A stretch of 64,000 nt of DNA from IMG/VR virus record IMGVR_UViG_3300022750_000190. One strand, written 5' to 3'. Source of the DNA: a virus (lineage: Duplodnaviria; Heunggongvirae; Uroviricota; Caudoviricetes). Each line of letters starts with the position of its first letter. Position 1 is the first letter of the stretch. A program made the position numbers and the translations under genes. Positions 6,389-49,972 of this stretch are shown piece after piece. The notes beneath the pieces were generated by a model. That model was not told where the DNA came from. It did no database searches and worked only from the letters and a program-made list of their open reading frames with translations.

Positions 6389-6407
6389 GCCTAATGAAAA
6401 ATAATCC

Positions 6408-7096: not shown

Positions 7097-7121
7097 TTGC
7101 ATCAAACAGTTAAATTAAATC

Positions 7122-7318: not shown

Positions 7319-7395
7319 GGGCCTTTAGCTCAGTTGGTCAGAGCACTCGACTCATAATCGATTGGTCGTAGGTTCAAGTCCTACAAGGCCCACCA
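7319..7395 (+). tRNA. tRNA with CAU anticodon (identical to 5002-5078)
   Basis: Identical 77-nt sequence. Confidence 0.8.
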
Positions 7396-24736: not shown

Positions 24737-24813
24737 GTCCGTATAGCTCAGATGGATAGAGCAACAGCCTTCTAAGCTGTGGGTCGTAGGTTCGAATCCT
24801 ACTGCGGATACCA
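24737..24813 (+). tRNA. tRNA-Arg(UCU), CCA encoded (copy 2, a distinct sequence)
   Basis: Acceptor GUCCGUA/UGCGGAU, D-arm GCTCAGATGGATAGAGC, anticodon stem ACAGC/GCUGU with loop CUUCUAA, T-arm GTAGGTTCGAATCCTAC. Confidence 0.85.
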
Positions 24814-29609: not shown

Positions 29610-30464
29610 ATGTCTAGATTTCTCGTTATTGTTATTGGTGAACATCCAGAAATGCAGTTAACTCAATATTCCTCTTTCGAAAGTGTTGAATTTCGAAACA
29701 AGTATCTTAAGTTGACTGATGAAACCCAAAAAGCAAAATCTGAATATGACTTTAACATTCATAGTTCTTTAAATGAGCACATGCTTCATTACTGCAGTGA
29801 ACTTGGCGCACGCAAACTTGATAGTTTTGGTTCCCCTGACTTTGTTGGTCTCCACCGTAATGGCTATTACACATTAGACAGCAATGGTAACGTCAATCTT
29901 ATCATGAGTCGTTACAACCCCACTAGTGAATGTTGTCACTTTGAAATGGGTGGTGGTTGGGCTGGCTTTTATTATGTCAAACCTAATAAAAATGGGATTG
30001 AAGTTGGCAAAAACCGTGAAGGGACACCTCTTCCTAGACCTCGCACTGCTGATCGCTTGCTTAAAGGTTCTATTGACTTTGAAAAGATGAATAAAGAATC
30101 GGGTATTTCAGCAGAATATCGTTATGATACTTATGTTTCAATGAAAGAAAAACATGGTAATACAAATTCTAAAGAATTTAAAAATGATTTTTCCATGTTC
30201 CTTCATAATCAAAATTGCTTTCCAATTTTTAATATTGATGAATATGAAGTACCCAAAGAAACATTTATTCGTCATCGACAACTTCAAAATATCAGTGCAT
30301 TCGCCTTTATTAAAGATGGCGTATGGCATGAGCATGAGAAACCACAATGGATACCAGATGCCAAGATTCCGTTAACAGAATTGGAATGGCTAGAACAAAC
30401 TTGGTCAATCATTGATGCATTATCTGATAATACACAAATTTCTGTTTTTGAATGTCTTTGTTAA
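29610..30464 (+). CDS. hypothetical protein
   Basis: ATG at 29610 (MSRFLVIVIGEHPEMQ). The track ORF starts at 29544 in frame. Confidence 0.5.
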   Translation: MSRFLVIVIGEHPEMQLTQYSSFESVEFRNKYLKLTDETQKAKSEYDFNIHSSLNEHMLHYCSELGARKLDSFGSPDFVGLHRNGYYTLDSNGNVNLIMSRYNPTSECCHFEMGGGWAGFYYVKPNKNGIEVGKNREGTPLPRPRTADRLLKGSIDFEKMNKESGISAEYRYDTYVSMKEKHGNTNSKEFKNDFSMFLHNQNCFPIFNIDEYEVPKETFIRHRQLQNISAFAFIKDGVWHEHEKPQWIPDAKIPLTELEWLEQTWSIIDALSDNTQISVFECLC

Positions 30465-30470
30465 AAACCT

Positions 30471-30499
30471 TTGACTATATATCTTTTTCTAGTTATTAT
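30471..30499 (+). promoter_or_regulatory. sigma70-like promoter TTGACT-17-TATTAT for tRNA-Leu copy 3
   Basis: TTGACT at 30471-30476 and TATTAT at 30494-30499. Leader TAGTCACACAAA. Confidence 0.5.
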
Positions 30500-30510
30500 A
30501 GTCACACAAA

Positions 30511-30595
30511 GCCCGGTTGGTGAAATTGGTAGACACATGAGACTTAAAATCTCCCGCCGAAAGGTGTGCCGGTTCGAGTCCGGCACCGGGCACCA
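30511..30595 (+). tRNA. tRNA-Leu(UAA), copy 3 (one substitution in the variable arm)
   Basis: Identical to 1853-1937 except CCGAAAGG versus CCGAAGGG. Confidence 0.85.
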
Positions 30596-30621
30596 TCTTA
30601 AACAAACACAAAGGTTTCATC

Positions 30622-31047
30622 ATGGATAAAATCACTTCTGAACATTTGGCTCAACTTCGTGACCTCGAACGTTATTTCGATGACCATGTTACCAAAATGA
30701 ATTACAATATTCGAAATTATGCTCGTGACCATATTGGAGAGCGTAACAAAATGCTGGATGAAAATAGGGAAAATTTTCATAAATGCAAAGCAGCAATTAG
30801 AAAGTTTTCTTTGAACTTCGAAAACTTTTATGCTTTGCCACAAGTTCCTAGTGAACCACACACCAATGAAGAATCCGAAATCTTGCAATATGCATTTTCG
30901 ATTCGTATTAAACAACTTGAAGCTGATTTGCAATATCTTATGGGTATGACTAACGAAAAGAAGGTATTTGCAGTTTGCGAAAAAGATTTGACTGATATGA
31001 AAAATTTGGCAAAAGAATTCAAAGAATTCATGCACTCAAATAGCTGA
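30622..31047 (+). CDS. hypothetical protein
   Basis: 141-aa ORF with RBS AAAGG. The overlapping minus-strand ORFs are rejected. Confidence 0.5.
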   Translation: MDKITSEHLAQLRDLERYFDDHVTKMNYNIRNYARDHIGERNKMLDENRENFHKCKAAIRKFSLNFENFYALPQVPSEPHTNEESEILQYAFSIRIKQLEADLQYLMGMTNEKKVFAVCEKDLTDMKNLAKEFKEFMHSNS

Positions 31048-31125
31048 TTAGTGTGTACCACCAAATCCCTTTATTAAAAAGGGATTTTTTGTTTTAAAAT
31101 TAAATATATAAGAGGACAATAGAAA

Positions 31126-31377
31126 ATGAAATCAGAATTAATTGAGTTAGTTAACTCAAAATACAACAAATGCAAAAGCTTTCAGGATTCAAAACGCACT
31201 GATTACAATGTGTTTCCAAAAGATCTTGAAAAAGCCACTTTAATCATTGAAGAACTTAAACCATTTTTAGTAGATGAATCCATTACAACAATTAACATGT
31301 CCGTTAGATATGAAATTGATGATTACAAAATTCAAATACTTTTTAGCGTCCCGTTTGGATATAAAGAAATAAATTAA
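31126..31377 (+). CDS. hypothetical small protein
   Basis: 83-aa ORF with RBS AAGAGGA. Confidence 0.45.
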   Translation: MKSELIELVNSKYNKCKSFQDSKRTDYNVFPKDLEKATLIIEELKPFLVDESITTINMSVRYEIDDYKIQILFSVPFGYKEIN

Positions 31378-31390
31378 TATATAATTCAAA

Positions 31391-31420
31391 AAGCCCTGAC
31401 ATATGTTGGGGCTTTTTTTT
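31391..31420 (+). terminator. intrinsic terminator
   Basis: AGCCC...GGGGCT followed by TTTTTTTT. Confidence 0.55.
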
Positions 31421-31601
31421 GCCCATAATTTAACCCTCAATTTTAAAATTTAAATATGTGTACTATAATATTTTCCTTTCATTTTAAAAATATTCCTTGC
31501 ATTTAAAAACACATAAGAATACAATTCGCGAAATCTAAACCATTGGAAGACGGAAATACATGATAGACCTAAATAAAAATAACCCGGAGAGAGAAAAAAA
31601 T

Positions 31602-32465
31602 ATGAGTATAAAAAAAATTGCTGCACTTGTAATTGCTGCTATTATAAGCCTTTTGCTTTTAATTATAATTTTCGATAGTGCATACACTGTTGATGAGGGT
31701 GAAAGAGGCATTATTCTTCGAAATGGTAAAGCCATTGGTGTAGCAGAACCCGGCTTGAACTTTAAAGCCCCTATTGTTGACCGCATTAAAACTATCAGCG
31801 TTCGTAGCTATACTGCTAAATATGATAAATTGCAAGCATATAGTAAAGACCAGCAACCAGCAGACTTGCGTGTTTCTGTAACTTACCGTGTTCCACCTAC
31901 CGAAGTAGTTGATCTTTACAGCACTTACTCTACTGTTGAAGGTATCACTGACCGTAGCATAAACCGTCAAGTTCCAACACAAGTAGAAAACGTTTTCGGT
32001 CAATACACCGCTATATCCGCAGTACAAAATCGTGCAAAACTTGTTGCTGATTTGGGCGTAGCCGTTAAAAACTCAATTACTGGTCCTATCTTCATTGAAA
32101 GCATACAGATTGAAAACATTGATTTCTCTAAAGCCTACGAAAAGTCTGTTGAAGACCGTATGAAAGCCGAAGTAGATGTTCAAACTCAGAATCAAAACTG
32201 GGAAAAGGAAAAAGTTTCTGCTAACATTGAAGTAACAAAAGCAGAAGCTGCTGCAAAAGTTAAAATTGCTGGTGCAGAAGCAGATGCTAAATCCATCAAA
32301 CTTCGTGGTGAAGCAGAGGCAGAAGCCATTAAAGCAAGAGCAGCAGCATTGGCACAAAACGAAAACCTTGTTGAGTTGACCAAAGCTGAACGTTGGAATG
32401 GTGTTCTGCCAACAACTATGCTCCCTAACACTGCAATGCCTTATTTTGAAGTTAACAAAAAATAA
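31602..32465 (+). CDS. SPFH / band-7 (prohibitin, HflK/C-like) membrane protein
   Basis: N-terminal transmembrane helix, then DEGERGIILRNGKAIGVAEPGLNFKAPIVDRIKTISVRSY and an Ala/Glu/Lys-rich coiled C-terminus. RBS GGAGAGAG. Confidence 0.65.
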   Translation: MSIKKIAALVIAAIISLLLLIIIFDSAYTVDEGERGIILRNGKAIGVAEPGLNFKAPIVDRIKTISVRSYTAKYDKLQAYSKDQQPADLRVSVTYRVPPTEVVDLYSTYSTVEGITDRSINRQVPTQVENVFGQYTAISAVQNRAKLVADLGVAVKNSITGPIFIESIQIENIDFSKAYEKSVEDRMKAEVDVQTQNQNWEKEKVSANIEVTKAEAAAKVKIAGAEADAKSIKLRGEAEAEAIKARAAALAQNENLVELTKAERWNGVLPTTMLPNTAMPYFEVNKK

Positions 32466-32481
32466 GAATATTTAAACAATT

Positions 32482-32510
32482 AAGTCCTCCTTTGTTGGAG
32501 GATTTTTTTT
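32482..32510 (+). terminator. intrinsic terminator
   Basis: AAGTCCTCC-TTTGTT-GGAGGATT followed by TTTTTTT. Confidence 0.65.
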
Positions 32511-32589
32511 GCATAAAATTCTAGCATTCAATAGATTTATCTGTTATAATCGAGTAAATCAAAATAAACCTCATAAATAGGAATAAGTT

Positions 32590-33012
32590 ATGAATTACAA
32601 AGCACTAATAGTTTTAGCTTCTGCACTCTTACTAAATGCTTGTGGACCTACGCCACAGGATATTGTTAGTAATAACGCTGTATCAGAACGAAATTTGTCC
32701 AATCCTGAAACTATTGGCAAAACGCCTGATGGTCAAATTGTAAAACGTGCAATTGTTAAATATCAGTGTGATTCTTGTGGTAGTTCTACAAGTCATTTTG
32801 TGTATTTTGTTGGCAGCGTAAAAAGTGATAATTATCCTGTTCAATCTGGAAAAACATCTTATAATCATGTTGATGTTACACTTCCCGAGAACCCTACTGC
32901 CGAAGATATTTTGAAAAAGGCAAAAGAAATTCAAGATCAACAAAAGCAAAGAGACGAAGAAGAATTTAAACGTCTTTGTAAAGAACTAAATAAACCAACT
33001 TGTAACCTTTAA
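32590..33012 (+). CDS. lipoprotein (paralog of 33029-33670)
   Basis: Signal plus lipobox-like LLNAC. Shares DGQ.VKR...KY.C...HFVY(F/Y)VG with its neighbour. Confidence 0.5.
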   Translation: MNYKALIVLASALLLNACGPTPQDIVSNNAVSERNLSNPETIGKTPDGQIVKRAIVKYQCDSCGSSTSHFVYFVGSVKSDNYPVQSGKTSYNHVDVTLPENPTAEDILKKAKEIQDQQKQRDEEEFKRLCKELNKPTCNL

Positions 33013-33028
33013 TTAAAAAGGATTAATT

Positions 33029-33670
33029 ATGAAAAATAAAATTTTTAAAACTCCTGCTGTTTTGGTATTTGCCTTATGTGCTATTTTTATTCAAGGTTGC
33101 CAAAAAACACCAGAAGATATTCAGAAAGAAATTGATAAAGACAATCTTGTTACAGAACAGAATAAAGAAAGTATTAAACAACCTGTTGTTATGGGAACAA
33201 CTGTTGATGGGCAAGAAATAAAGAGAATTCATTTTAAATATAAGTGTAAAACTAGTGATAGTTGCTACAGCACTGTAGACCATTTTGTTTATTATGTAGG
33301 TAATTCGGTTAGTGATAATCGTGAAGTCCGAATAGCCAAAAGTGTATATAATAACGTTGAAGTTTCTCTTGGTACTAAGCCAACCCCTGAACAAGTGATT
33401 GCAGAAGGAGAAAGAATTAAAAAAGAAATTGAAGATTCTGAACGCAAAGAACTCAAAAGACTCAGCCATAAATATAATTACGATGAATGTGGTAAAAGTA
33501 TGCCTGAATTTGTTTTACCTGAAAATCCGACAATAGAACAGCAAACTTATTCTTTAGCTTATGAACAAGCTCAAAAAGCAAGAGAAGCATGTATTCATGA
33601 ACATGAAGAATATGAAAAAGCAAAAAAAGACTTGGAAGCCGAAAAAGCTAAATTAAAAAAGGAATCTTAA
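33029..33670 (+). CDS. lipoprotein (paralog of 32590-33012)
   Basis: Signal plus lipobox IQGC and a C-terminal Lys/Glu coiled region. Confidence 0.5.
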   Translation: MKNKIFKTPAVLVFALCAIFIQGCQKTPEDIQKEIDKDNLVTEQNKESIKQPVVMGTTVDGQEIKRIHFKYKCKTSDSCYSTVDHFVYYVGNSVSDNREVRIAKSVYNNVEVSLGTKPTPEQVIAEGERIKKEIEDSERKELKRLSHKYNYDECGKSMPEFVLPENPTIEQQTYSLAYEQAQKAREACIHEHEEYEKAKKDLEAEKAKLKKES

Positions 33671-33671
33671 C

Positions 33672-34667
33672 ATGGCAATAATTCTAACAGGCGATAGACC
33701 AACAGGTTCCCTTCATTTAGGGCATTATATCGGCTCGCTTCGAAATCGTGTGGCGTTGCAACACGAACACACTCAATATCTGTTAATTGCCGATAATCAA
33801 GCATTAACAGATAACATGGGAAATCCCATGAAAGTTCGTGATAATATCATTGAAGTTGCAAAAGACTACCTTGCTTCTGGCATTGAACCAACTAAAACAA
33901 CTATTGCTATTCAATCTTTGCTCCCTGCAATTGCTGAATTAACTCTTTTGTATATGAACTTTGTTACTGTTTCTCGTTTAGAACGAAACCCAACAATTCG
34001 TGATGAAATCAAGTCAAGAAACTTTGGTCGTGATATTCCAGCAGGGTTCCTTGCTTATCCTGTTGCACAAGCAGCCGATATAACAGCATTTAAAGCCTCT
34101 TTAGTGCCTGTTGGTGAAGATCAAGCTCCATTGATTGAACAAGCTAACGAAGTTGTTAAAAAGGTTAACAGACAAGCTGAAAAAGAAATTCTTCCCGAAA
34201 TTACTGCTTTGATTCCAACCATTGGTAGACTTCCAAGTCTTGATGGGAAATCAAAAATGAGTAAATCTTTAGGTAATACAATCAATCTTTATTCCAGTAA
34301 TGACGAAATTACCAAAGCTGTTCGAGCTATGTTTACTGACCCAACTCATATTAAAGTATCAGATCCGGGGAAAGTTGATGGCAACGTAGTATTTACTTAC
34401 TTAGACGCTTTTGATACGAATCTTGAAGAACTTAATGCTTTGAAAGAACATTATATTCGTGGTGGACTTGGCGATTCCGTTATCAAGAAAAGGCTAACAG
34501 AGATCTTAATTGAAACATTAACTCCTATTCGTGAAAAAAGACTTCAATTGAATAATGAACACGAATATGTTCTTAGTGTATTAAAACAAGGGACAGACAT
34601 TGCAAGAGAAGTAACTCAAACCAATTTAAATGAAATCAAAAGACATTTAAATATGTTTTCTTTTTGA
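33672..34667 (+). CDS. trpS: tryptophanyl-tRNA synthetase
   Basis: HIGH-type motif TGDRPTGSLHLGHY, VPVGEDQ, YPVAQAADI and KMSKS, collinear with bacterial TrpRS. 331 aa. Confidence 0.85.
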   Translation: MAIILTGDRPTGSLHLGHYIGSLRNRVALQHEHTQYLLIADNQALTDNMGNPMKVRDNIIEVAKDYLASGIEPTKTTIAIQSLLPAIAELTLLYMNFVTVSRLERNPTIRDEIKSRNFGRDIPAGFLAYPVAQAADITAFKASLVPVGEDQAPLIEQANEVVKKVNRQAEKEILPEITALIPTIGRLPSLDGKSKMSKSLGNTINLYSSNDEITKAVRAMFTDPTHIKVSDPGKVDGNVVFTYLDAFDTNLEELNALKEHYIRGGLGDSVIKKRLTEILIETLTPIREKRLQLNNEHEYVLSVLKQGTDIAREVTQTNLNEIKRHLNMFSF

Positions 34668-34693
34668 TTCAACCAACTTACAGGGAAAATATT

Positions 34694-35254
34694 ATGGGAT
34701 ATACAACTGATTTTTATGGCACTTTTAAAATCACACCAGCTTTAAAAGAAGAGCATAAAGAATATTTACTTGCATTTTCTGATAGCAGAAGAATGAAGCG
34801 TAATGCTCAAAAATGTGAATCACTTCATGATCCTATTAGATTGGCAGTTGAACTCCCTGTTGGCATAGAAGGTGAGTTCGTTGTATCACAAACTGGATAT
34901 GATGACAAATCAATTATTGAACGCAATAGTCCATCTTCAACTCAACCGGGGCTTTGGTGTCAATGGATTCCCAATGATGAAGGCACTGAACTAAAATGGA
35001 ATGGTGCTGAAAAATTCTATGCTTATATAGAATGGCTTGACTATCTTCATACGAAGTTATTTAAACCATGGGGCTACACTTTGGAAGGGATGGTTAAATG
35101 GCGAGGCGAAGATCATGATGATACTGGTAGAATTACTTTCAAAGATAATATATTAAGTCACCAAACTCAAAAGCAACGTGATGATTTACTGGATGAATTT
35201 CTTGAAAAACAAGAAACTGAAAAACCTTCTATTGACTTAAAGAAAAGAGACTAA
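34694..35254 (+). CDS. hypothetical protein, paralog family X (member 1 of 3)
   Basis: MGYTTDF.G.F.ITP.LKEEHK.YL...QPGLWCQW.P...G..L.W.GAEKFY.YIEWL.YL. ATG at 34694 with RBS AGGGAAAA. Confidence 0.5.
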   Translation: MGYTTDFYGTFKITPALKEEHKEYLLAFSDSRRMKRNAQKCESLHDPIRLAVELPVGIEGEFVVSQTGYDDKSIIERNSPSSTQPGLWCQWIPNDEGTELKWNGAEKFYAYIEWLDYLHTKLFKPWGYTLEGMVKWRGEDHDDTGRITFKDNILSHQTQKQRDDLLDEFLEKQETEKPSIDLKKRD

Positions 35255-35259
35255 ATATT

Positions 35260-36456
35260 ATGTTTTTTGAACACTTAAAATTAGAAAAAGAAGATTTCAA
35301 AGATTTCTTAGTATCTAAGAAATTGGAAGTTATTGAATTGACTATCAGAGAGGATTACTTTTCTTTTTCAAACACGAAACAAAATGGTCATTTTATTATC
35401 GCTAATGGCCCACTTGATAAATTACTAGGCTTCATTTTCTCTAATTTCACAAAGCCCCAATTTCGAGAAATGATGGTTAACATTGAACAGCTTCTATCAC
35501 TCGCTAATAACGAAGTTTCTTTTGATGGCTTATACAAAAAGACTACATTAACTTTTATATTTGAAGGTGATAAAATCAGTATGATGATAGACAAAGTTCT
35601 TCATATACTCATTGATAATACTGACACTGTTAATTTCTCATTATCTGGTATTGAATTTTCTTTTAAAAGAAACTCTAAATTTGGTGAGTTTTTAAATCTT
35701 ATACAACAAAAAACAAAAGAACTTTTTGAAAGTACTTACCATCTTGATTACACAATTGAAAATGCATCCAAGATAAAAGCGCTTATTAACACTCAATACA
35801 ACCTTAATGCCCCAAAATACAATTCAGCTATCGATCATAAATATGATCAAAATAAAGTAGCCCAATATATGAATGATAACTATGTTGGTGTTATGCTTTC
35901 TTCTGTCATAAATATGAATGAACCATTGAATTCATTAGTTACCAAACCAACGGTTGATATGTCAAGAAAAGTTAATCATAATGGTAAATTCTCAGGAACT
36001 GAACGCATTACATTTCCAGTAAATCACATTAATGAAACTGAAACACTATTAGACCATATTTTAATTAATGAATGGTCAAAGAAAACAGTTCAAATGATTA
36101 AGTCAATGACCGCATATCAAACTGCAATTAATGACCTAGATATTCGTCATGTTTCTTTTTTTATGCCTAAATTATTAGATGAAAAAAAAGATATTGAACG
36201 TTTTGAGCTATTCAGTATAGTTTCTGACTCAGTATCTTATGGCAATAATCAACAAAGTTTTAAAATTATTTTTGGTTTAAGTGTTCATATTCAAATTAAA
36301 GATGGCACTGCAATTGTTTATGATTCCAAATTTAAAACTTTAGATGAAGCTTATACTGACTTTATTGAATTTTTTAGAAAAAAAGTTACGAAAAAGTTGC
36401 CTAATAAGAAAATAGACACAGAAACTTTAAAATTATTAAACTTGAAAAGCATTTAA
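35260..36456 (+). CDS. hypothetical protein
   Basis: 398-aa ORF between TrpRS and the ThyA-family gene. Confidence 0.5.
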   Translation: MFFEHLKLEKEDFKDFLVSKKLEVIELTIREDYFSFSNTKQNGHFIIANGPLDKLLGFIFSNFTKPQFREMMVNIEQLLSLANNEVSFDGLYKKTTLTFIFEGDKISMMIDKVLHILIDNTDTVNFSLSGIEFSFKRNSKFGEFLNLIQQKTKELFESTYHLDYTIENASKIKALINTQYNLNAPKYNSAIDHKYDQNKVAQYMNDNYVGVMLSSVINMNEPLNSLVTKPTVDMSRKVNHNGKFSGTERITFPVNHINETETLLDHILINEWSKKTVQMIKSMTAYQTAINDLDIRHVSFFMPKLLDEKKDIERFELFSIVSDSVSYGNNQQSFKIIFGLSVHIQIKDGTAIVYDSKFKTLDEAYTDFIEFFRKKVTKKLPNKKIDTETLKLLNLKSI

Positions 36457-36466
36457 CAACTAACAC

Positions 36467-36507
36467 CAGCTTTTTAAAATTTACAGAGCTAAAAAGCTGT
36501 CTTTTAA
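36467..36507 (+). terminator. terminator-like inverted repeat
   Basis: CAGCTTTTTA...TAAAAAGCTG followed by TCTTTTAAT. Confidence 0.4.
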
Positions 36508-36734
36508 TAAACTGTTGGTGAACCTTTTTAAAAATAATAAAAATAATTTTTTTTAATCAAAAACATTCAAACAGGATGAATAAAAATGCATTGATATATT
36601 TTTATTTAATAATATATGATTGTTTAAAACCCCAAAACACTCAAAACAGAACTTTTTGCAGCAATCAAAAATATCTGCTTTTTTGAGGAAAATATATACA
36701 AAAACTTAATGTTATTATTTTTTATATAAATAAA

Positions 36735-37667
36735 ATGAATGATATGCAACCTTTTCACGAAACCTATAAACAATTATTAAAAGACTTACTAGAATCCGAT
36801 GTTGAAATGAACAATAGAACTGGCGTTAACATAAAAGTTAGTGATACTCCTATTTCTTTCAATGTTGACTTATCAGATGGAGTATTACCTACAATTGGAG
36901 TAAGAAAAACATTCCCAAAGAGTGCCGCAGCAGAAGTTGCTTGGTTTATTAGTGGAGAACAAGATGTTTCATTTATTAAAATGTATGCTCCAATGTGGGA
37001 TAAATTTTCTGAAACCATAAAAAAAGATGATGCTGAAATAGAAGGCGTTTTAGCTGCTTATGGATACAGATGGAGAAATCACTTTGGAAGAGATCAATTA
37101 ACTGATGCTGTTGAAGCATTGAAAAAAGATCCTAGTAATCGAAGAATTTATATCTCTGCTTGGGATGCTGCAACTGATGGCTTGCTTGAAGAGGGTCAAT
37201 CAAATGTTCCATGTCCAGTAGGATTCACTCTAAGCATTGTGAAAGGTAAACTTAATTCTGCTGTTATGCTTCGTTCTTCTGATGTCTTTGTAGGGCTACC
37301 ATATGATGTTATGGGGCATTCTTTATTGATGGATTCGATTGCTAAAACATTAAACGTTGATTTAGGAATCATGCACACTACATTAGCACACCCTCATCTA
37401 TATCAATTCCACTGGAAAATGGCTGAACAATGTTTAAATAATGATATTAAAATACCTGCATTACAAATGCCTCATTGGAGTTTAGAAGAAATAGAAAATA
37501 AACCTAATGAGTATGTAGAAAAAATAAGACAAGATTCACTAAAACACGAATGGCCTGAATACAATCCCAAACCTTTTGTTGTTGATAAAAAAGATGACGC
37601 TCAAAAAGAACAGTTAAATGAATTAATCAAAAAACCAGCTAAAAAACAAACGCCCAAATTTAGTTGA
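36735..37667 (+). CDS. ThyA-family enzyme (thymidylate synthase / dNMP hydroxymethylase or methylase family) with Asp at the ThyA Asn177-equivalent position
   Basis: NNRTGVN, VPCPVGF (catalytic Cys region) and LRSSDVFVGLPYDVMGH align to ThyA RSCDVFLGLPFN, with the final Asn replaced by Asp as in T4 dCMP hydroxymethylase (RSNDVVFGFRND). Confidence 0.7.
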   Translation: MNDMQPFHETYKQLLKDLLESDVEMNNRTGVNIKVSDTPISFNVDLSDGVLPTIGVRKTFPKSAAAEVAWFISGEQDVSFIKMYAPMWDKFSETIKKDDAEIEGVLAAYGYRWRNHFGRDQLTDAVEALKKDPSNRRIYISAWDAATDGLLEEGQSNVPCPVGFTLSIVKGKLNSAVMLRSSDVFVGLPYDVMGHSLLMDSIAKTLNVDLGIMHTTLAHPHLYQFHWKMAEQCLNNDIKIPALQMPHWSLEEIENKPNEYVEKIRQDSLKHEWPEYNPKPFVVDKKDDAQKEQLNELIKKPAKKQTPKFS

Positions 37668-37719
37668 CTATATATTGTTTTTTCGTGTATAATTCCCATT
37701 CATTTAATGGTATTAAAAT

Positions 37720-38229
37720 ATGGGATATACAACTGATTTTGAAGGTTCTTTTCAAATAACACCAACTTTGAAAGAAGAACACAAACAATATTTGATTACT
37801 TTTTCTAAAAAAAGAAGAATGAAACGTGACTCCATTAAATGTGAAGCATTTAATGACCCCATTCGTCAGGCAGTCGAACTTCCCATTGGCATTGAAGGTG
37901 AGTTTACTGTTTTTGGTGATGAAGATTTGTTTTCTAATGATTCATCGATTATTGACCATAATCTCCCATCCCCTACACAACCCGGTCTTTGGTGCCAATG
38001 GATTCCCATGGAAGATGGAAATGCTTTAGTATGGGATGGCGCTCAAAATTTTTACAATTACATTGAATGGCTTGAATATTTAAAGACAAGTTTCTTTGAA
38101 CCTTGGGGTTATACCTTGTCAGGCACAATGAAATGGAATGGACAAGGTTATAATGACACAGGAACCATCACTGTTGATAACAACATCATTACTACTAAAA
38201 AGGGCTGGAACTATGGGATACACAACTGA
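37720..38229 (+). CDS. hypothetical protein, paralog family X (member 2)
   Basis: Same motif set as 34694-35254. Confidence 0.5.
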   Translation: MGYTTDFEGSFQITPTLKEEHKQYLITFSKKRRMKRDSIKCEAFNDPIRQAVELPIGIEGEFTVFGDEDLFSNDSSIIDHNLPSPTQPGLWCQWIPMEDGNALVWDGAQNFYNYIEWLEYLKTSFFEPWGYTLSGTMKWNGQGYNDTGTITVDNNIITTKKGWNYGIHN

Positions 38230-38749
38230 TTTCGAAGGTTCTTTTAAAATAACACCTACTTTAAAAGAAGAGCATAAATTATATTTAAATACATTCTCTG
38301 AAACACGTAGAATGCAACGTGATTCTACAATATGTGAGACTTTTCCAGATCCCATTCGTTTAGCAGTGGCTTTACCTATTGGCGTTGAGGGAGAGTTTAC
38401 AGTCTTTGGTGCTGGTTTTTATGGTCAAGATGACGACAAGTCGATCTTAAACCATAACAAACCACCTGAAACACAACCGGGGCTTTGGTGTAAATGGGTT
38501 CCAAATGAGGATGGAACTCATTTAGAATGGAATGGTGCTGAGAAATTCTATGACTATATTGAGTGGCTAGATTATCTTCACTCTAATTTCTTTAAACCTT
38601 GGGGTTATTCTTTATCAGGTAGTGTGTCATGGAATGGCGAAGACACTAATGATACTGGTGTAATCACCTTTAATGAAAACGTTTTAAGTAGCATGAGCGA
38701 TAAAGAACTTCGTAAACTTTCAAATGTCAACTTGACGAAAAAGGATTAA
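38213..38749 (+). CDS. hypothetical protein, paralog family X (member 3)
   Basis: ATG at 38213 overlaps the 3' end of member 2 by 17 nt in another frame. The track ORF starts at 38138. Confidence 0.5.
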   Translation: MGYTTDFEGSFKITPTLKEEHKLYLNTFSETRRMQRDSTICETFPDPIRLAVALPIGVEGEFTVFGAGFYGQDDDKSILNHNKPPETQPGLWCKWVPNEDGTHLEWNGAEKFYDYIEWLDYLHSNFFKPWGYSLSGSVSWNGEDTNDTGVITFNENVLSSMSDKELRKLSNVNLTKKD

Positions 38750-38754
38750 TTCTA

Positions 38755-39000
38755 ATGAAAATATCTTGGACAAAAGATGAACAAAATCTTATTAATTTAA
38801 GTATATTCTATGCACTTAAAAATCCAGTCAATGAAAAAACATCTGTTGATTTTTTAGGCGCAAATAGACCTAATATCGACATTAAAGAACTACCAAATGG
38901 AACAATCATTCTGACTGTTCTTGATAATCCAAAAGATGATACTGTTGCTATTTCAGAGAACAAGGATAGTCCTACTAAACCAACTACCTCAAAAGGTTAA
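38755..39000 (+). CDS. hypothetical small protein
   Basis: 81-aa ORF. Confidence 0.4.
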   Translation: MKISWTKDEQNLINLSIFYALKNPVNEKTSVDFLGANRPNIDIKELPNGTIILTVLDNPKDDTVAISENKDSPTKPTTSKG

Positions 39001-39005
39001 AAATA

Positions 39006-39797
39006 ATGGAAAATATTAATAAAGTTATCCAACATTATAAAATGAATGAAAGAGAAAACTTTGAAAAAACTGTTGTTGACCATTTGAATAATAAGGCATC
39101 CTTGATTAAGCTTTTAAATAATAAATGCGTTAGGTTTTTTGAAATTGCTGATGAGCTTAAAAATGATCGAGAGTTATCTCTTTTGGCAGTCAAGAAAGAT
39201 GGAACCAATTTTAAATATATTAATTCAGAATTTCAAAAAGATAGAGAAATCATTGTCGCAGCTATAAAATATCGACATGCAGACTTTGACTATATCCATA
39301 AACATATTCCAAGCGAAATCCTTAATGAACGCGAAATTGCTGAATATATTTTAAAGCATGGTTTCGACACTCTTAAATATTTAGATCCAAATTATGCTGA
39401 TGATAAAGATCTACTTCTTAAACTGAAAGTCGTAGCATTAGAATCAATGTCCGAACGATTGAAAAAAGATCGAGAAATTGTTTTGTATTGTGTTTCTGAG
39501 TTAGGAAATAAATTACAATTTGCAAGTACTGACTTGCAAGATGATTACGATGTTGTATTAACAGCCGTCAAAAATGAAGGGAATGCTTTGAAATACGCTT
39601 CTGAGCGATTAAGAACAGACCCTAAAATTGTAAAAGCAGCTATTCGTAATGAATGGGATGCAGCTAGTCATATGTCAGATGAAGCCCGCTCCAATAAAGA
39701 CATTATATTATATGCCATAAAAAAGGATTTTAATAATCTAGAATATGCAAGCCCGGAACTTCAAGAATATTACACAAAGAATCCTATCAACTGGTAG
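39006..39797 (+). CDS. DUF4116-type repeat protein
   Basis: Repeated units DRE(L/I)...A(V/I)K..G.(A/N)(L/F)KY(A/I).(S).(E)L(Q/R).D.(E/K)(I/V)V..A(V/I). Confidence 0.5.
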   Translation: MENINKVIQHYKMNERENFEKTVVDHLNNKASLIKLLNNKCVRFFEIADELKNDRELSLLAVKKDGTNFKYINSEFQKDREIIVAAIKYRHADFDYIHKHIPSEILNEREIAEYILKHGFDTLKYLDPNYADDKDLLLKLKVVALESMSERLKKDREIVLYCVSELGNKLQFASTDLQDDYDVVLTAVKNEGNALKYASERLRTDPKIVKAAIRNEWDAASHMSDEARSNKDIILYAIKKDFNNLEYASPELQEYYTKNPINW

Positions 39798-39815
39798 GAT
39801 TCTTTGCTAGTAATA

Positions 39816-40565
39816 TTAATCGTCCAAGCAATCTGTTGCAGCAAACAACTGGAACAGATGACGATTAACTCTACACAACATTGGATAGTTTTCCAATGCA
39901 TTTTCACAAGACCAATCTTCACCATCATATTTGTCTTGTTTAACACTCAGGAGATAGCCATCATCCCTAGCGTCTTTGTATCGGAAATGAGCATTTGAAT
40001 TGACATTCTCAATGTCTGAAAGCCAATTCCAGCTTCTAATCGACTTCATTTTCGCTGGTTGCATTTTTGTATCAACCAGATAACGGATATGAACTTCATG
40101 TGTTGTCAAATCAAGTGTATCAAAACCACCTTCTTCTTTTTCGAAAAACCTTTTGCGATTATTAATGTCGATTTTAATTACATAGGTAAAATACTCAGTA
40201 GCGCTCAAAAGAACAATACATTCGGGCGTATTTACCATGATAGCAGTGTATTCTTCATCGTAGTATTCATCGAATGGATTCTTTTTATCATGCTCATTTT
40301 TAATAAGCCAATCACACAGTTTCAAAATCTGAGGTGTCAACGCTTTGACTTCGTGAGCCGCATATTGCGCCATCATCCAGTTAATGCCGTTATTCAAAAA
40401 GCCATCTGTTCGACTAGAAAAATTCTCATGAGCAATTTCACCCATAATTTGTGGAAGCAGATGAACACTTTCAATGCCAGTGTCAGCAATGGCTTTGCGA
40501 ATTGCTGCTTTACCATCAACAAGTTTACGCTCTTGTTCTTTCATTTGCTTTTCAAGATCGGACAT
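39816..40565 (-). CDS. hypothetical protein (paralog of 40706-41467)
   Basis: Shares LP(Q/K)I(M/L)G..., CDWL..N.HDK.NP..., (Y/G)(T/S)AIM(V/I)N with its neighbour. RBS GAGAA. Confidence 0.5.
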   Translation of the reverse strand: MSDLEKQMKEQERKLVDGKAAIRKAIADTGIESVHLLPQIMGEIAHENFSSRTDGFLNNGINWMMAQYAAHEVKALTPQILKLCDWLIKNEHDKKNPFDEYYDEEYTAIMVNTPECIVLLSATEYFTYVIKIDINNRKRFFEKEEGGFDTLDLTTHEVHIRYLVDTKMQPAKMKSIRSWNWLSDIENVNSNAHFRYKDARDDGYLLSVKQDKYDGEDWSCENALENYPMLCRVNRHLFQLFAATDCLDD

Positions 40566-40705
40566 GATTATTTCTCAGTTTGGAAATCGGATTGAATGTT
40601 AGTAGGTAATACTATTTAATTGAAGAGATTATACACTATAATAATGCCTTTGACAAGAAAAAAAGCCCATCATCAGATAGGCTTCAATTTTCAAATATAT
40701 CGATT

Positions 40706-41467
40706 TTACTGATTTTCTTGTTCGTAAATTTTGTTCAATAAATCAACATTAACATGTCGAAGCATGTTCAAATTTTTATAAGCAGAGGAAGTTTTCCAGA
40801 GATCTTCTGATACTGGTTGCTGAACTGTACTTACAACATATCCTTCGTCCCTAAAATCATTAGATTTAAATAATTTAGCTTTGATTTCTTTTTTGTCTGA
40901 CAACCATTCCAAAGATTCGAAAGGAATCATTTCATAATCTTCTTTTTCCACTTCAATAGGGCATTCTATTGTGCGAACATGAATACCATAACAAGTAAAA
41001 TCAGTTGGATCTTTATCATCTCCAATATAGAATTTATGCTGGCTTTTATCAATTTTCACAATGTAACTGAAATCATCAGTTCCATTTAGCAAAACGGTCA
41101 TATCTGAATCGTTAATCATGATAGCCGAATAACCAGAGTTATGAAAATCAGTGTAAGGATTGGTTTTATCATGACCATTACTGGAAAGCCAATCGCAATA
41201 ACCAATAATTTTAGGAAGCAACTTTTTCATTTCCAAGGTGACGACTTCATCAATCACCCATTCAAAAGTATTACTCAGCAAACAACTTTCGCCTTTGTAA
41301 TGATTTTGAATAACACCACCTAAAATTTTAGGTAGGATCAAAGCACTCGAAGCGTCATTATCAGAAATAAATTTTTCAAATCCTTTAATACTATTTTCAA
41401 TCATTTCTTCATCAGAGATATAGTCCACGATTTTACCTTTTATTTTGGATACCAGAATGAGATTCAC
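40706..41467 (-). CDS. hypothetical protein (paralog of 39816-40565)
   Basis: Track start is GTG at 41467. An internal ATG (MIENS...) is an alternative start. Confidence 0.45.
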   Translation of the reverse strand: MNLILVSKIKGKIVDYISDEEMIENSIKGFEKFISDNDASSALILPKILGGVIQNHYKGESCLLSNTFEWVIDEVVTLEMKKLLPKIIGYCDWLSSNGHDKTNPYTDFHNSGYSAIMINDSDMTVLLNGTDDFSYIVKIDKSQHKFYIGDDKDPTDFTCYGIHVRTIECPIEVEKEDYEMIPFESLEWLSDKKEIKAKLFKSNDFRDEGYVVSTVQQPVSEDLWKTSSAYKNLNMLRHVNVDLLNKIYEQENQ

Positions 41468-41579
41468 ATTATACGATAATTGCTCTCAAAAAGTCAATCT
41501 GAACCACATGAAATTCTAATAGACAGACCTTCTCACTTGGTATACAATAATGTCTTCTCATAAACTAGGAATATAAAAA

Positions 41580-41867
41580 ATGTTAATTATCGGTTTGATT
41601 TTGTTTTTTGCATTATTAACAATCTATAGTTGTTATAAAATTTACAAAATTATTAAAACTATAGAACTTACTCATTCTGATTATAATAAAGGAATCATTT
41701 ATATGCTCCTGAGTTCTATTGCATTATTCATTCCATTAATGTTACATTTCCATGGTAATATTCCAGCATATGTTGTAGCAATTTGTGTGGCAAACAATTG
41801 GGCTTGCATTCTTCTTGCAGCAATTCTTGCTATTAAATATGATTCGTCTAAAAACTTTGCGAAATAA
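41580..41867 (+). CDS. small membrane protein
   Basis: 95 aa with three hydrophobic segments. Confidence 0.4.
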   Translation: MLIIGLILFFALLTIYSCYKIYKIIKTIELTHSDYNKGIIYMLLSSIALFIPLMLHFHGNIPAYVVAICVANNWACILLAAILAIKYDSSKNFAK

Positions 41868-41873
41868 AAGCAA

Positions 41874-41900
41874 TAAAGCACTCCTAGGAGTGCTTTAAAT
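41874..41900. terminator. bidirectional terminator hairpin
   Basis: AAAGCACT-CCTAGG-AGTGCTTT flanked by A- and T-rich runs between convergent genes. Confidence 0.5.
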
Positions 41901-41905
41901 TGGTT

Positions 41906-42385
41906 TCAATCTCTTTCTATAGAATAGTCGTCAAGGTTAAAATCATCTTCATCTAAACCAGCTTCTATTCTCCTGCGCTCATTTTCTTCCAAAAATTCTG
42001 TAAATGTATCACAACGCATACCGATTTCAGTTTCGTCTGACCATATAATAAAAAATCCTAAACCATTTTCTCTTGCATCATAAATCAAATAAGAATCATT
42101 TTCTGCAAACAATGGAATCCATTTACGTAATGGAAGGTTTCTTTTTATATCAAGCTCCCAATATCCAAGAATATCATCAACATGCTCATTCCAGTTTTCA
42201 ATAAGCTCGAAGTTAGGAATATCATATTCTTCGGCTGACATTAACTCAGACACCGGAAACCATGTTGCTCCATTTTTAGATAGAAACTCTTTATCCTCAC
42301 CAAGATACTCTAAATAATCTTGTGGCAACTTTATATCTAATTCCTTCTCTTTTTGTTTTACTATTTTCTTGAATTCTGCGTTCAT
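41906..42385 (-). CDS. hypothetical acidic protein
   Basis: 159 aa with RBS GGGAA on the minus strand. Confidence 0.5.
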   Translation of the reverse strand: MNAEFKKIVKQKEKELDIKLPQDYLEYLGEDKEFLSKNGATWFPVSELMSAEEYDIPNFELIENWNEHVDDILGYWELDIKRNLPLRKWIPLFAENDSYLIYDARENGLGFFIIWSDETEIGMRCDTFTEFLEENERRRIEAGLDEDDFNLDDYSIERD

Positions 42386-42598
42386 TTTTTCCCTTCTAAT
42401 TTTTAAAAATTGTACATAATTAAATACAAGAATTTGCTATTAATAAAAATATTTTAAATAAATACACTTACAAACCATAAAAAACTTAAAATAATCGATT
42501 AATTGTACCAATAATTAGTGCTCAAAGCAAATATTTCAATTGATTTTGAAAACCAATCAAGTATAATCTAACACACAACATTATAAGGAGTTTACATC

Positions 42599-42952
42599 AT
42601 GGCTATAGATCAAAATCCACTCTACAAAGTAGGTGATAAAATTGAATACATATTTAATGCTCCCTTGAAAGAAGGGCTTAGCTATAGGCACAATGTCTGG
42701 TATCCCGGTGAAATTACTGCCCATTCTACTGATTCTTCAACATCCGTTAAATTCATTGATGACAATGGCGATGAGAAAGAATCAACAACTTATTATAATG
42801 ATTTCATGGGCGGCTATGAATCAATCAAATTGATTATCACACCAGAAGAACTTGAAAAAAGACGCTTGGAATGGCTTGCTGAGCATATTGCTATTGCAAA
42901 AGAAGCCTATGAAGACCGTGTAGAATTCTTGAATTCAATCAAATTTTCTTAA
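42599..42952 (+). CDS. hypothetical protein
   Basis: 117-aa ORF with RBS AAGGAG. Confidence 0.5.
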   Translation: MAIDQNPLYKVGDKIEYIFNAPLKEGLSYRHNVWYPGEITAHSTDSSTSVKFIDDNGDEKESTTYYNDFMGGYESIKLIITPEELEKRRLEWLAEHIAIAKEAYEDRVEFLNSIKFS

Positions 42953-43017
42953 TACAACGATTAATAGCTTGCGAAAAAACTATATTTCAGATATAATCAT
43001 CGCATATTAAATCATTA

Positions 43018-43665
43018 GTGATAGTCTTCATGAAATTACATATTATTTCAAAAACGATAGCTAAATCATTGGGTATGAAATTTTATTTCACAGGTGTCGC
43101 TTGCATTAATGGTGGTATAGGGCTTCGAGCAGTAAACAGTAGCCGCTGCAGATGTTCTATATGCTTATTAAAACATAGTGAAATTGAAAGACAACACAAC
43201 AAAACCAATAAAAGAATTTTAACTGTTGAACAAAAAGAAAGAAAAAGTGCCACAAACAAAATTTATCGCGAAAAAAACATTGATATTATAAAAGAAAAAA
43301 AACGCACATGGAAAATTGAAAACCCCGAGAAAATCAAACAACAAAGGTTTGATTACCATAAACGTAATCCTCATCTGGCAAGAGCAAAACGCGCACTACG
43401 CCGTGCCACTTTAAAAAATAGAACTCCACTCTGGTTTGGTGAGTTTGATAAATTTGTGATAAATGAAGCTGCCCATCTTTGTGAAATCCGTAAAGTTGCA
43501 ACAGGTTTTGATTGGCAAGTAGATCACATGTTTCCTTTGCAAGCAAAAAAGGTTAGCGGACTTCATTGTGGTATCAATATGCAAGTTATTCCACGGGTTT
43601 TGAACACTTCCAAATCTAATCGAATGATTTTCACAGAACCCTTTGAATGGCTCAAATCCTTTTAA
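43018..43665 (+). CDS. HNH endonuclease-like protein
   Basis: C-terminal WQVDHMFPLQAKKVSGLHCGINMQVIPRVLNTSKSN fits the H-N-H/N pattern, with an N-terminal Cys cluster. The true start may be an internal ATG. Confidence 0.55.
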   Translation: MIVFMKLHIISKTIAKSLGMKFYFTGVACINGGIGLRAVNSSRCRCSICLLKHSEIERQHNKTNKRILTVEQKERKSATNKIYREKNIDIIKEKKRTWKIENPEKIKQQRFDYHKRNPHLARAKRALRRATLKNRTPLWFGEFDKFVINEAAHLCEIRKVATGFDWQVDHMFPLQAKKVSGLHCGINMQVIPRVLNTSKSNRMIFTEPFEWLKSF

Positions 43666-43732
43666 AAAAACACTTGATAATATTTTTGCGATTCAGTATA
43701 ATGAGTTAGCCCACTAAAAAGAGAGGCTAAAA

Positions 43733-44029
43733 ATGAAACCAATCTCCAAAGCTGATGTTGAAAATGCTCTTGACGAACGTGAATTCCCTGACTTTGTTAT
43801 CCAAGCGTTTAACGAATGTATCATGGAAGCCCGCATTAAAAACTCTAAAGACGTCATGCAAGACGATGTTGTTAAACGCATCGAAAAACTTGGCAATGTA
43901 TCTCGCAACTCCATCTTTGAAAATCACTGGCTTGATGTAGAGCGTCATTATCGCAATGCTGGTTGGAAAGTGAGTCACCACAAACCTGACTATAACGAAT
44001 CTGGAAAATCATATTTCCATTTCAGTTAA
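43733..44029 (+). CDS. hypothetical protein
   Basis: 98-aa ORF with RBS AGAGAGG. Confidence 0.45.
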   Translation: MKPISKADVENALDEREFPDFVIQAFNECIMEARIKNSKDVMQDDVVKRIEKLGNVSRNSIFENHWLDVERHYRNAGWKVSHHKPDYNESGKSYFHFS

Positions 44030-44046
44030 TTCTTTGAAACAATAAA

Positions 44047-44082
44047 AACAACCCCAATCTTTCTAGACTGAGGTTGTTTTTT
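44047..44082. terminator. intrinsic terminator between convergent genes
   Basis: CAACC...GGTTG followed by TTTTTT. Confidence 0.5.
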
Positions 44083-44086
44083 GATT

Positions 44087-44410
44087 TTAATTTGTAAAAG
44101 GCAGTCGTGCCAAAATGCAACGAGTATTTTCAGGATAACGGCGATTCTCAATTTTGTTAATGAACACTTGATCGTGGTAGCAAATGCCAACAGAGTCATT
44201 ATGCCAATGCACTGTGTAATTACGACCTTCCAACATAGCAGGAGTCAAGCCTCTAAAACTACCACATAGATTCCCACCGCCAAGTGTAGCAAAACTTTCT
44301 TGCCAAACATGGATGCTGTGATATGCTTTCATATCATCATGGTTTTCGAACAACCATTCAAGGCATTCTTTTGCAGAATTCCATTCGTAATGTTTTACAT
44401 GTATGCTCAT
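44087..44410 (-). CDS. hypothetical protein
   Basis: 107 aa with RBS AGAGAA on the minus strand. Confidence 0.45.
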   Translation of the reverse strand: MSIHVKHYEWNSAKECLEWLFENHDDMKAYHSIHVWQESFATLGGGNLCGSFRGLTPAMLEGRNYTVHWHNDSVGICYHDQVFINKIENRRYPENTRCILARLPFTN

Positions 44411-44545
44411 GACGTTCTCTTTTGAGAGGTGTTTAAGATGAGTAATCTTATCACAATGGAGTTAAATGGTCAACAAAAAACCTATTGCATCATCCATTTA
44501 ATGCTGTTATTATAGTGTGATATATCATTTCATGGGAATATTTTA

Positions 44546-45151
44546 ATGACCACAAATACTTCAAAAATCATTTCTTTACTTGTTAAGGAAAAATGCTTTA
44601 CAGAAAGAAAGGATGATCTTGGTTATATTGATTCTGGTTCTAATCACTATTTTGAAATGATGCTTAACAAATTAAAGGATTCTGATTATTTTAATAGTTC
44701 AAAGCGTCAATTAACTGAATTAAAACCCTATTTTAATTCAAGTGAAGAACTTTTGGAATATTATGAATTTTTAATGAACTCAATTCACATGGATGAAATC
44801 AAAAGAATAGTAACTTCTATTTTTTCGCATTGTGATTTAATTCATGATGAGATGCATGTTGTATTGATTAAGGCCAAGTATCACCCCAATGAAGCAACAG
44901 GAAGACAAACTTTTATTAAAGATGTTAATAATAAAATTGAACGAATCAGATTGATAATTTCAGGATATAACACGCTCCAAAATCCTGAACATATTCATTT
45001 TGAAATAAAAGGTCTTAAAAGTATTTTTAAAGCAAATAACTTTTTTAACATTGTAATTGATAGATTAGCAGATTCTATATACGAAGACACAAAAACTTTG
45101 TTTAGTCACAAAAAATCAATGTTAAATCATAACGAAGAAAAAGCCTCGTAA
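44546..45151 (+). CDS. hypothetical protein
   Basis: 201 aa. The stop codon TAA sits in the GTAA loop of hairpin AAGCCTC-GTAA-GAGGCTT. Confidence 0.5.
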   Translation: MTTNTSKIISLLVKEKCFTERKDDLGYIDSGSNHYFEMMLNKLKDSDYFNSSKRQLTELKPYFNSSEELLEYYEFLMNSIHMDEIKRIVTSIFSHCDLIHDEMHVVLIKAKYHPNEATGRQTFIKDVNNKIERIRLIISGYNTLQNPEHIHFEIKGLKSIFKANNFFNIVIDRLADSIYEDTKTLFSHKKSMLNHNEEKAS

Positions 45152-49347: not shown

Positions 49348-49348
49348 T

Positions 49349-49903: not shown

Positions 49904-49972
49904 TGGCTCCTTGCCACTTATCTGTAATTTAATTTAATAATTGCAAGTATCTTTTAATAGTGTCAAAGTGAT

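Follow-up and report, generated by a model that had tools for sequence, protein, structure and literature searches.

Does a phage gene that looks like thymidylate synthase (TS) make thymidylate, or does it modify cytosine? The question arises from an open reading frame within 64,000 nucleotides of phage DNA, the whole of which we call the window. An earlier note, made by reading the sequence, had drawn attention to a single Asn-to-Asp change in the encoded protein and taken it to predict cytosine modification. Our answer, which comes from sequence comparison and a predicted fold, is that the gene quite likely encodes a folate-dependent deoxycytidylate C5-methyltransferase (EC 2.1.1.54) of the type found in Xanthomonas phage Xp12. 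The ~600-kb phage that carries it would then probably have 5-methylcytosine, not hydroxymethylcytosine, in its DNA.

The reading frame runs for 310 codons from an ATG to a TGA (Table 1). An alternative genetic code with read-through of TGA was considered and rejected; the standard code holds and the stop is genuine. The protein belongs to the ThyA superfamily. It matches PF00303 (Thymidylat_synt) with E=1e-41 and 143 bits against a cut-off of 24.3, and PHROG 160, named 'thymidylate synthase', at 2e-61. All three hallmarks listed by the earlier note (RTG, VPCPV and R-S-S-D-V-F) are present. Among solved structures, pairwise HMM alignment ranks thymidylate synthases of bacteria and of T4 highest, with E down to 5e-27. 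The AlphaFold (AF2) model has the TS fold (pLDDT 89.4, pTM 0.89), and Foldseek superimposes it on full-length canonical TS over ~290 aligned columns with TM up to 0.83. Among the best 50 PDB matches of the model, all are TS chains except one designed hydrolase, and T4 gp42, the dCMP hydroxymethylase, does not feature. With each of the eight NCBIfam ThyA equivalogs, the protein nevertheless stays under the curated cut-off (for example, 115 bits vs 327), the least short being TIGR03284 at 100.4 against 108.35. Purifying selection on the gene is strong: omega is ~0.09 in comparison with a relative of 80% identity and ~0.2 with one of 62%.

Table 1. Features of the gene and its surroundings, in window coordinates.
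Feature	Position	Strand	Basis or remark
ThyA-family gene, predicted Xp12-type dCMP C5-methyltransferase	36735..37667	+	ORF, PF00303, identity, clade, fold, dN/dS
R28-T29-G30, phosphate-binding Arg (E. coli R21)	36816..36824	+	invariant in 120/120 homologs
N157-V-P-C160-P161: catalytic Cys (E. coli C146), Asn at E. coli L143, Pro at E. coli H147	37203..37217	+	
R180-S-S-D183-V-F-V-G-L-P-Y-D191: E. coli R166, S167, D169, N177	37272..37307	+	alignments
TS-type C-terminal segment, aa ~247-284, ending WPEYNPKPFVV	37473..37586	+	alignment A2, Foldseek
Lys-rich 26-aa tail (DKKDDAQKEQLNELIKKPAKKQTPKFS region)	37587..37664	+	predicted helix aa 288-299, then disordered basic end
AT-rich intergenic spacer, 278 nt	36457..36734	+	20.9% GC
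Perfect 10-bp AT-rich hairpin (CAGCTTTTTA...TAAAAAGCTG), then TCTTTT	36467..36499	+	RNA fold
Sigma-70-like promoter match, TTGACT-18-TATAAT, 11/12	37664..37693	+	consensus match only

The residue on which the question turns is the one equivalent to Asn177 of Escherichia coli ThyA. Asn at this position picks uracil and Asp picks cytosine, and positions 177 and 147 are the ones that best tell modified phage contigs from unmodified ones (eLife, PMC8670742). That paper cites Hardy and Nalivaika (1992) and Liu and Santi (1992) for the shift in TS preference from dUMP to dCMP brought about by N177D. T4 gp42 is specific for cytosine because it has Asp here. In our protein, LPYD lies opposite LPFN in pairwise HMM alignments with E. 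coli ThyA, T4 Td and other solved TS, and three independent multiple alignments place D191 in the same column as E. coli N177 and T4 gp42 D179. Asp is present at this position in all 120 of the nearest homologs. The central observation of the earlier note, an Asp at the Asn177 position as in T4 gp42, is therefore confirmed by both kinds of alignment. Its reading of the switch as the mark of a dCMP-modifying enzyme, not a TS, is supported too, since the 120 homologs with Asp include the Xp12 enzyme, which makes 5-methyldeoxycytidine (5mdC), and that of Pseudomonas phage PaMx74, whose cytosine is reportedly all 5mC.

The rest of the active site tells a consistent story. C160, R28, R136, R137 and R180, the catalytic and phosphate-binding set, are each invariant in the homolog set, and the equivalents of E. 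coli D169 and of D177 are invariant across the Xp12-type clade. NVPCP, around the catalytic Cys, is found in 118 of the 120 homologs as well as in Xp12 and Pseudomonas phage PaMx74; the residue three before the Cys is D in T4 gp42 and L in E. coli. We derived NVPCP as a clade signature in this analysis from the 120 homologs, which include the validated Xp12 enzyme. The clade-invariant signature, NVPCP...RSSDVFVGLPYD (the second part being the motif from R180 to D191), is present in our protein.

Five positions in E. coli numbering, 143/146/147/169/177, serve as a code. It reads N-C-P-D-D in our protein, in Xp12 and PaMx74, in 120/120 of the nearest homologs and in 31 of 32 clade loci from IMG/VR. 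E. coli ThyA reads L-C-H-D-N and T4 gp42 D-C-T-D-D, while 38 distant viral homologs, predicted dUMP hydroxymethylases, read D-C-N-D-N. Position 143 was taken as catalytic Cys minus 3; a loop insertion shifts that column between multiple alignments, and our reading reproduces the published assignment for gp42 (Asp145; PMC13326640). Within 6 Å of C5, a shell of 12 residues that we took from the same Nucleic Acids Research (NAR) paper (PMC13326640), our protein equals the Xp12 enzyme at 11 positions, the exception being the variable position 142. The aligned folate and phosphate contacts are also those of Xp12 apart from variable position 79 (Met vs Leu). The sole fixed difference between the subclade of our protein and the rest of the clade, P39 (E. 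coli G31), lies outside the active site. Because the active site matches that of the Xp12 enzyme, 5mC rather than 5hmC is predicted in the phage DNA.

There is one wrinkle. Position 143 is bulky in TS and acidic in the hydroxymethylases T4 gp42 and MilA (NAR 2026, PMC13326640). Residue 143 of our protein is Asn, which does not literally satisfy the published rule that a bulky hydrophobic residue means methyl, and so the methyl call is based on the homology with the Xp12 enzyme, whose residue 143 is likewise Asn.

Who, then, are the relatives? Searched by tblastn, 50,697 phage records yielded a coherent set of siphoviruses at 50-57% identity over ~90% of the protein, among them Xp12, Pseudomonas phages PaMx28, PaMx74 and AAT-1, and Stenotrophomonas phages AXL1 and DLP4. 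A nucleotide search with window positions 30000-45000 against INPHARED gave no match. NVPCP and RSSDVFVGLPYD are identical between our protein and those of Xp12 (QNN97214.1), PaMx74, PaMx28, AXL1, DLP4 and related Bradleyvirinae, to which it is 53-57% identical across ~280 aa. In alignment A2, identity is 56% to Xp12, 55% to PaMx74, 27% to E. coli ThyA and 22% to T4 gp42. The next-nearest viral homologs stand at 25-38% identity, and a block of them (loci L040-L080) shows the D...N pattern at 143/177. A neighbor-joining tree places our protein inside the N-C-P-D-D clade with Xp12 and PaMx74 in 97/100 bootstraps, a placement that excludes TS, gp42 and the dUMP hydroxymethylases. The subclade to which our protein belongs has 100% support; branching order within the clade has only 21%.

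Some of the chemistry of this clade has been worked out. Cytosine is reportedly replaced entirely by 5mC in Xp12 and PaMx74, and co-expression of the Xp12 ThyA homolog with T4 gp1 in E. coli yielded 5mdC (bioRxiv 10.1101/2024.12.05.627091). Of seven metagenomic Asp177 homologs in the same study, five made 5mdCMP, and the other two, also predicted methylases, were unconfirmed. DNA of AXL1, a member of the clade, withstands restriction enzymes with G/C in their sites (PMC9206674).

The C terminus of the protein was singled out by the earlier note as an extension of roughly 60 residues relative to T4 gp42. The length is right (310 vs 246 aa, a difference of 64), and the novelty largely dissolves, as most of the extension is a TS-type C terminus that gp42 has lost and only ~26 residues are new. 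The segment at aa ~247-284 is conserved throughout the Xp12 clade (WPxYNPKPxV, ending NPKPxVV in our protein and the Xp12-type enzymes alike), aligns to the C terminus of E. coli ThyA and is absent from T4 gp42. The paper on the MilA structure (PMC5175136) notes that 27 C-terminal residues of E. coli TS are missing from the T4 enzyme. These residues partly cap the TS active site upon folate binding, so the site of the T4 enzyme is more open (PMC5175136). Retention of the segment fits TS-like reductive chemistry.

The added residues are the last ~26 amino acids (KKDDAQKEQLNELIKKPAKKQTPKFS), for which the AF2 model gives a helix with pLDDT ~70 followed by residues below 50. Among 119 homologs with the NPKP motif, 101 stop within a few residues of it. 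The remaining 18 have tails of 24-48 aa (~25% Lys/Arg), all of them within the 32 nearest to our protein by E-value, and the 13 that were placed in the tree all fall in a subclade from AT-rich large contigs. These tails have a loose pattern in common, a short amphipathic helix and then a basic end. The basic tail may anchor the enzyme on DNA or on the machinery of replication or dNTP synthesis. It also makes the C terminus of the subclade differ from that of the validated enzymes, which counts against the methylase call.

The company the gene keeps is unusual. An identical protein is encoded on a metagenomic contig of 604,209 bp (ENA ERZ27228643), of which the window is positions 43,915-107,914, and a contig from a second dataset has 100% identity to the window across 17.1 kb. 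The contigs that carry homologs at 57-62% identity measure 604 kb, 678 kb and 1.54 Mb. The window itself has 32.6% GC, is ~82% coding and is filled with many small genes of unknown function. Since the 0.68-Mb and 1.54-Mb contigs that carry relatives gave almost no Pfam hits, we considered whether we were looking at a giant eukaryotic virus. For the window this was ruled out by a bacterial-type TrpRS, 14 bacterial-type tRNAs and 22 PHROG family hits, and the motif enriched upstream of its genes, TGTATAAT, an extended -10 element, also speaks against it. The window has no conserved neighbor genes with the large-contig relatives L081, L082 and L084; L089 has many genes in common with it, in a different order.

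In Xp12 and PaMx74 the ThyA homolog is the second member of a cassette, HAD/pyrophosphohydrolase - ThyA homolog - dCMP-deaminase-family gene - DHFR. The same partners are directly adjacent by tblastn in most clade loci of IMG/VR (HAD/pyrophosphohydrolase in 30/32, the deaminase-family gene in 28/32, DHFR in 29/32). We looked for them across 82.6 kb, the window and 10 kb to either side of it, using Pfam and PHROG on 74 ORFs, tblastn with Xp12, PaMx74 and T4 proteins as queries, and five custom HMMs. None was found. Neither a dNMP kinase, a MazG/dCTPase nor a glycosyltransferase was found in the same stretch, and the cassette partners were likewise undetected by tblastn and profile HMM near the homologs L081, L082 and L084. 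D191, D183, C160, the NVPCP signature and the clade placement are all those of an Xp12-type enzyme, and the gene cassette is absent from the 82.6 kb. The missing cassette is a trait of the context, not of the enzyme.

With the partners absent locally, there is no local evidence for dCTP removal, for recycling of dihydrofolate or for a route from 5mdCTP to dTTP. A linked DHFR is what a methylase producing dihydrofolate would need. The earlier note had spoken of a dCMP 5-modification pathway; its enzyme stands and its partners (dCTPase/MazG, dNMP kinase, deaminase, DHFR, glycosyltransferase) are absent from the 82.6 kb, so that the pathway is inferred from a single enzyme. The Xp12-type systems otherwise reside in GC-rich siphoviruses of 55-65 kb, as opposed to a phage of 604 kb and 32.6% GC. 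Next to them, our system lacks the pyrophosphohydrolase/HAD, deaminase and DHFR genes at its flanks and has a 26-aa Lys-rich tail in addition.

The DNA immediately upstream had also caught the eye of the earlier note, and the AT-rich, ORF-free region it described is there. Its GC content compares with an intergenic mean of 29.9 +/- 7.5%, and it is the eighth longest of the 117 gaps in the window. We considered a regulatory RNA or other special element and ruled it out: an Rfam search of the spacer gave no match, promoter-like sites in it are at shuffle expectation, and the nearest relative, L089, does not conserve it, having a gap of ~60 nt there with similarity that starts only ~28 nt before the ATG. 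A hairpin directly 3' of the upstream stop codon (-9.3 kcal/mol, z = -2.27 vs shuffles) is probably the terminator of the upstream gene. At the other end, the sigma-70-like match overlaps the stop codon of the ThyA-family gene and probably serves the downstream gene at 37720.

What we infer for the product, its incorporation into DNA and the extent to which it replaces cytosine would run as follows. C160 would attack C6 of dCMP, a mechanism modelled on that of thymidylate synthase. D191, in the place of Asn177, would hydrogen bond to N3 and the 4-amino group, so that cytosine would be preferred to uracil. 5,10-Methylene-tetrahydrofolate would pass its one-carbon unit to C5, where hydride from the folate would reduce it, leaving 5-methyl-dCMP and dihydrofolate as products. 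The kept TS-type C-terminal segment, together with a residue 143 that is not acidic, would favor reduction to methyl over hydration to hydroxymethyl. 5-Methyl-dCMP would then be phosphorylated to 5-methyl-dCTP and built in by the phage replicase, so that 5-methylcytosine would replace cytosine in part or throughout, presumably as a guard against restriction.

How do the other enzymes of the superfamily fare as explanations? An ordinary thymidylate synthase, turning dUMP into dTMP (EC 2.1.1.45), is what GenBank takes the homologs to be and what PHROG 160 is named for. The fold and all catalytic residues except 177 and 147 are TS-like, and no other ThyA or ThyX is seen in the window. Our protein and E. 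coli ThyA (PDB 1BID, 2TSC and others) have in common R21, E58, W80, Y94, R126/R127, C146, R166, D169, H207 and Y209 as well as the C-terminal segment, and presumably also the chemistry of reductive methyl transfer. They differ by N177D, H147P, L143N, Q165L and C168S, however, and the first of these is the very change that moves TS from dUMP to dCMP; with the shortfall against every NCBIfam equivalog and the 5mdC made by the Xp12 homolog, we consider a TS highly improbable. A hydroxymethylase like T4 gp42 (PDB 1B5D/1B5E) comes into view through the same Asp, and it too has the ThyA fold and the catalytic Cys. In such an enzyme water would add to the exocyclic methylene, and 5-hydroxymethyl-dCMP, perhaps destined for glycosylation, would be released along with tetrahydrofolate; the enzyme would require no DHFR, and there is none nearby. 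Residue 143, being a polar Asn, is also unlike the bulky Leu of TS. Yet gp42, at 22% identity, carries Asp and Thr at positions 143 and 147 and is without the TS C-terminal segment. Our protein has Asn157 where T4-like enzymes and MilA have Asp or Glu (the rule of PMC13326640), keeps the segment and with it lacks the open folate site of gp42, and lies in a clade (97% support) from which the tested enzymes make 5mdC, and no glycosyltransferase was found in the window. We judge a hydroxymethylase improbable. Of the 'dCMP hydroxymethylase or methylase' in the earlier note, the methylase is strongly favored, the hydroxymethylase is disfavored, and gp42 is not the closest model. Asp177 is common also to the ThyA homologs RB69 gp48 and DLP3 gp80, which act on dCMP as 5-hydroxy-dCMP synthases, and to the CMP hydroxymethylase MilA. 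D169N is the mark of the flavin-dependent synthases (NAR 2026, PMC13326640); gp48 and gp80 carry it with L143E and use flavin and O2, whereas our protein has N143 and a clade-invariant Asp (D183) at 169. With residue 143 not acidic and the five-helix C-terminal domain of MilA missing, we give enzymes of either sort next to no chance. The dUMP hydroxymethylases of the SPO1 gp29 type, of which loci L040-L080 are predicted examples, are in the same superfamily; their code of D143/N147/N177 implies a uracil substrate and a hydroxymethyl product, while our protein has N157 at 143 and D191 at 177.

A methylase of the Xp12 type could still be put to more than one use. 5-Methyl-dCMP might chiefly feed the supply of thymidylate, by way of deaminated 5-methyl-dC nucleotides, or replacement might be partial, and the cytosine of the virion would then be mostly canonical. 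Deamination of 5mdCTP has been proposed as a source of dTTP in Xp12-type phages (bioRxiv 10.1101/2024.12.05.627091), and no dCTP-degrading enzyme was detected within the 82.6 kb. The deaminase that the route requires is missing locally too, though, and the absence of partners applies to those 82.6 kb of a ~600-kb genome; we think this use of the enzyme rather unlikely. At the other extreme, a very large, AT-rich phage lineage (the 604-kb genome together with the relatives on large contigs, up to the one of 1.54 Mb) would replace all of its C by 5mC, through an enzyme of the tail-bearing subclade and with no linked dCTPase, deaminase or DHFR. That is a tentative idea, which we entertain as a possibility and do not expect.

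Returning to the Xp12-type dCMP methylase itself, the enzyme class is already known and has been validated experimentally. This type of enzyme was not previously reported in phages of ~600 kb, and what is modestly new here is the huge-phage lineage, the separation from the canonical cassette and the basic tail specific to the subclade. The signature of N143, P147, D169 and D177 with a TS-type C terminus offers a simple rule for telling makers of 5mC from those of 5hmC, 5hoC and 5hmU. If the gene is what we take it to be, its homologs, now labelled 'thymidylate synthase', would need another name in the databases. Metagenomic DNA of this huge-phage lineage would have 5mC at all or many cytosines, with effects on bisulfite or enzymatic-conversion sequencing, some restriction-based library preparations and nanopore base-calling. 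It would bear as well on how these phages evade or trigger host restriction (type II vs type IV systems). The enzyme could occur apart from its usual gene cassette, and base replacement known from siphoviruses of ~60 kb would extend to genomes ten times larger. Were replacement complete, these would be by far the largest known genomes with a fully substituted base.

Is separation from the usual neighboring genes a peculiarity of the huge-phage subclade of the predicted Xp12-type dCMP C5-methyltransferases? The answer came from a 21.6-kb viral contig of 41.8% GC (IMGVR_UViG_3300033068_001444), whose ThyA homolog (50% identity) carries the clade code N-C-P-D-D at the residues equivalent to Escherichia coli ThyA 143/146/147/169/177. 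No HAD/deaminase/DHFR cassette was found in the 10 kb downstream of this gene. Separation of the gene from the cassette is therefore not confined to the huge-phage subclade.

The more distant viral ThyA homologs that we retrieved from IMG/VR (loci L040-L080) have Asp143 together with Asn177 in 38 of 38 cases. Their code, D-C-N-D-N, is the signature that would be expected of dUMP hydroxymethylases, judging by these residues, and several of the loci hold a deaminase-family gene within a few kilobases of the ThyA homolog. Homologs bearing the Lys-rich C-terminal tail, each at 57% identity, lie on two very large contigs, L082 (JGI 3300031088; 677,834 bp) and L084 (JGI 3300024308; 1,539,155 bp). 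Both are 28-31% GC with almost no Pfam matches, and both have TnpB/OrfB_IS605 genes near the methylase homolog and, about 6 kb upstream of it, a 185-aa AAA_18/AAA_33 kinase (weak Cytidylate_kin2). To our knowledge, the 1.54-Mb contig is larger than every known phage genome; it may be a phage, a giant virus or a misassembly.

Closer to home, uncharacterized phrog_38666 paralogs flank the ThyA-like gene on both sides. The two to its right overlap by 17 nt and share the N terminus MGYTTDFEGSF. In the nearest relative, L089, the ThyA homolog is followed, 2.2 kb downstream, by a phrog_38666 homolog. This loose linkage between family and methylase may be coincidental.

Features of the window and its right flank
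Feature	Position	Strand	Remarks
tRNA array, 12 genes	1853-7395		left end; Met(CAT) ×5, others Leu, Ser, Arg, Asn, Thr
Isolated tRNA gene	24737-24813		
Isolated tRNA gene	30511-30595		
Tryptophanyl-tRNA synthetase (TrpRS)	33672-34667	+	bacterial-type, phage-encoded
phrog_38666 paralog	34694-35254	+	E about 1e-15
phrog_38666 paralog	37720-38229	+	E about 1e-15
phrog_38666 paralog	38213-38749	+	E about 1e-15
ORF-free gap	49348-49972		625 nt
Putative ArfA (alternative ribosome-rescue factor A)	~58745-58876 (L087 5367-5498)	+	43 aa; precomputed Pfam match
ORF-free gap	61222-61576		355 nt
Class I SAM-dependent methyltransferase	L087 10824-11828 (contig 108,116-109,120)		334 aa; just right of window

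The window encodes 14 tRNAs, none of them predicted in the two long ORF-free gaps, and a TrpRS whose top solved-structure relative is Deinococcus radiodurans TrpRS II (E=8e-105) rather than a TrpRS of the housekeeping type. The putative ArfA gene is unusual phage cargo. Just beyond the window, the 334-aa methyltransferase matches Methyltransf_11/12/23/25/31. Window-wide, the only 8-mers enriched upstream of genes were TGTATAAT and GTATAATC (extended -10). Shine-Dalgarno-like motifs precede just 14 of the 84 genes, a hint that Shine-Dalgarno usage is weak in the host.
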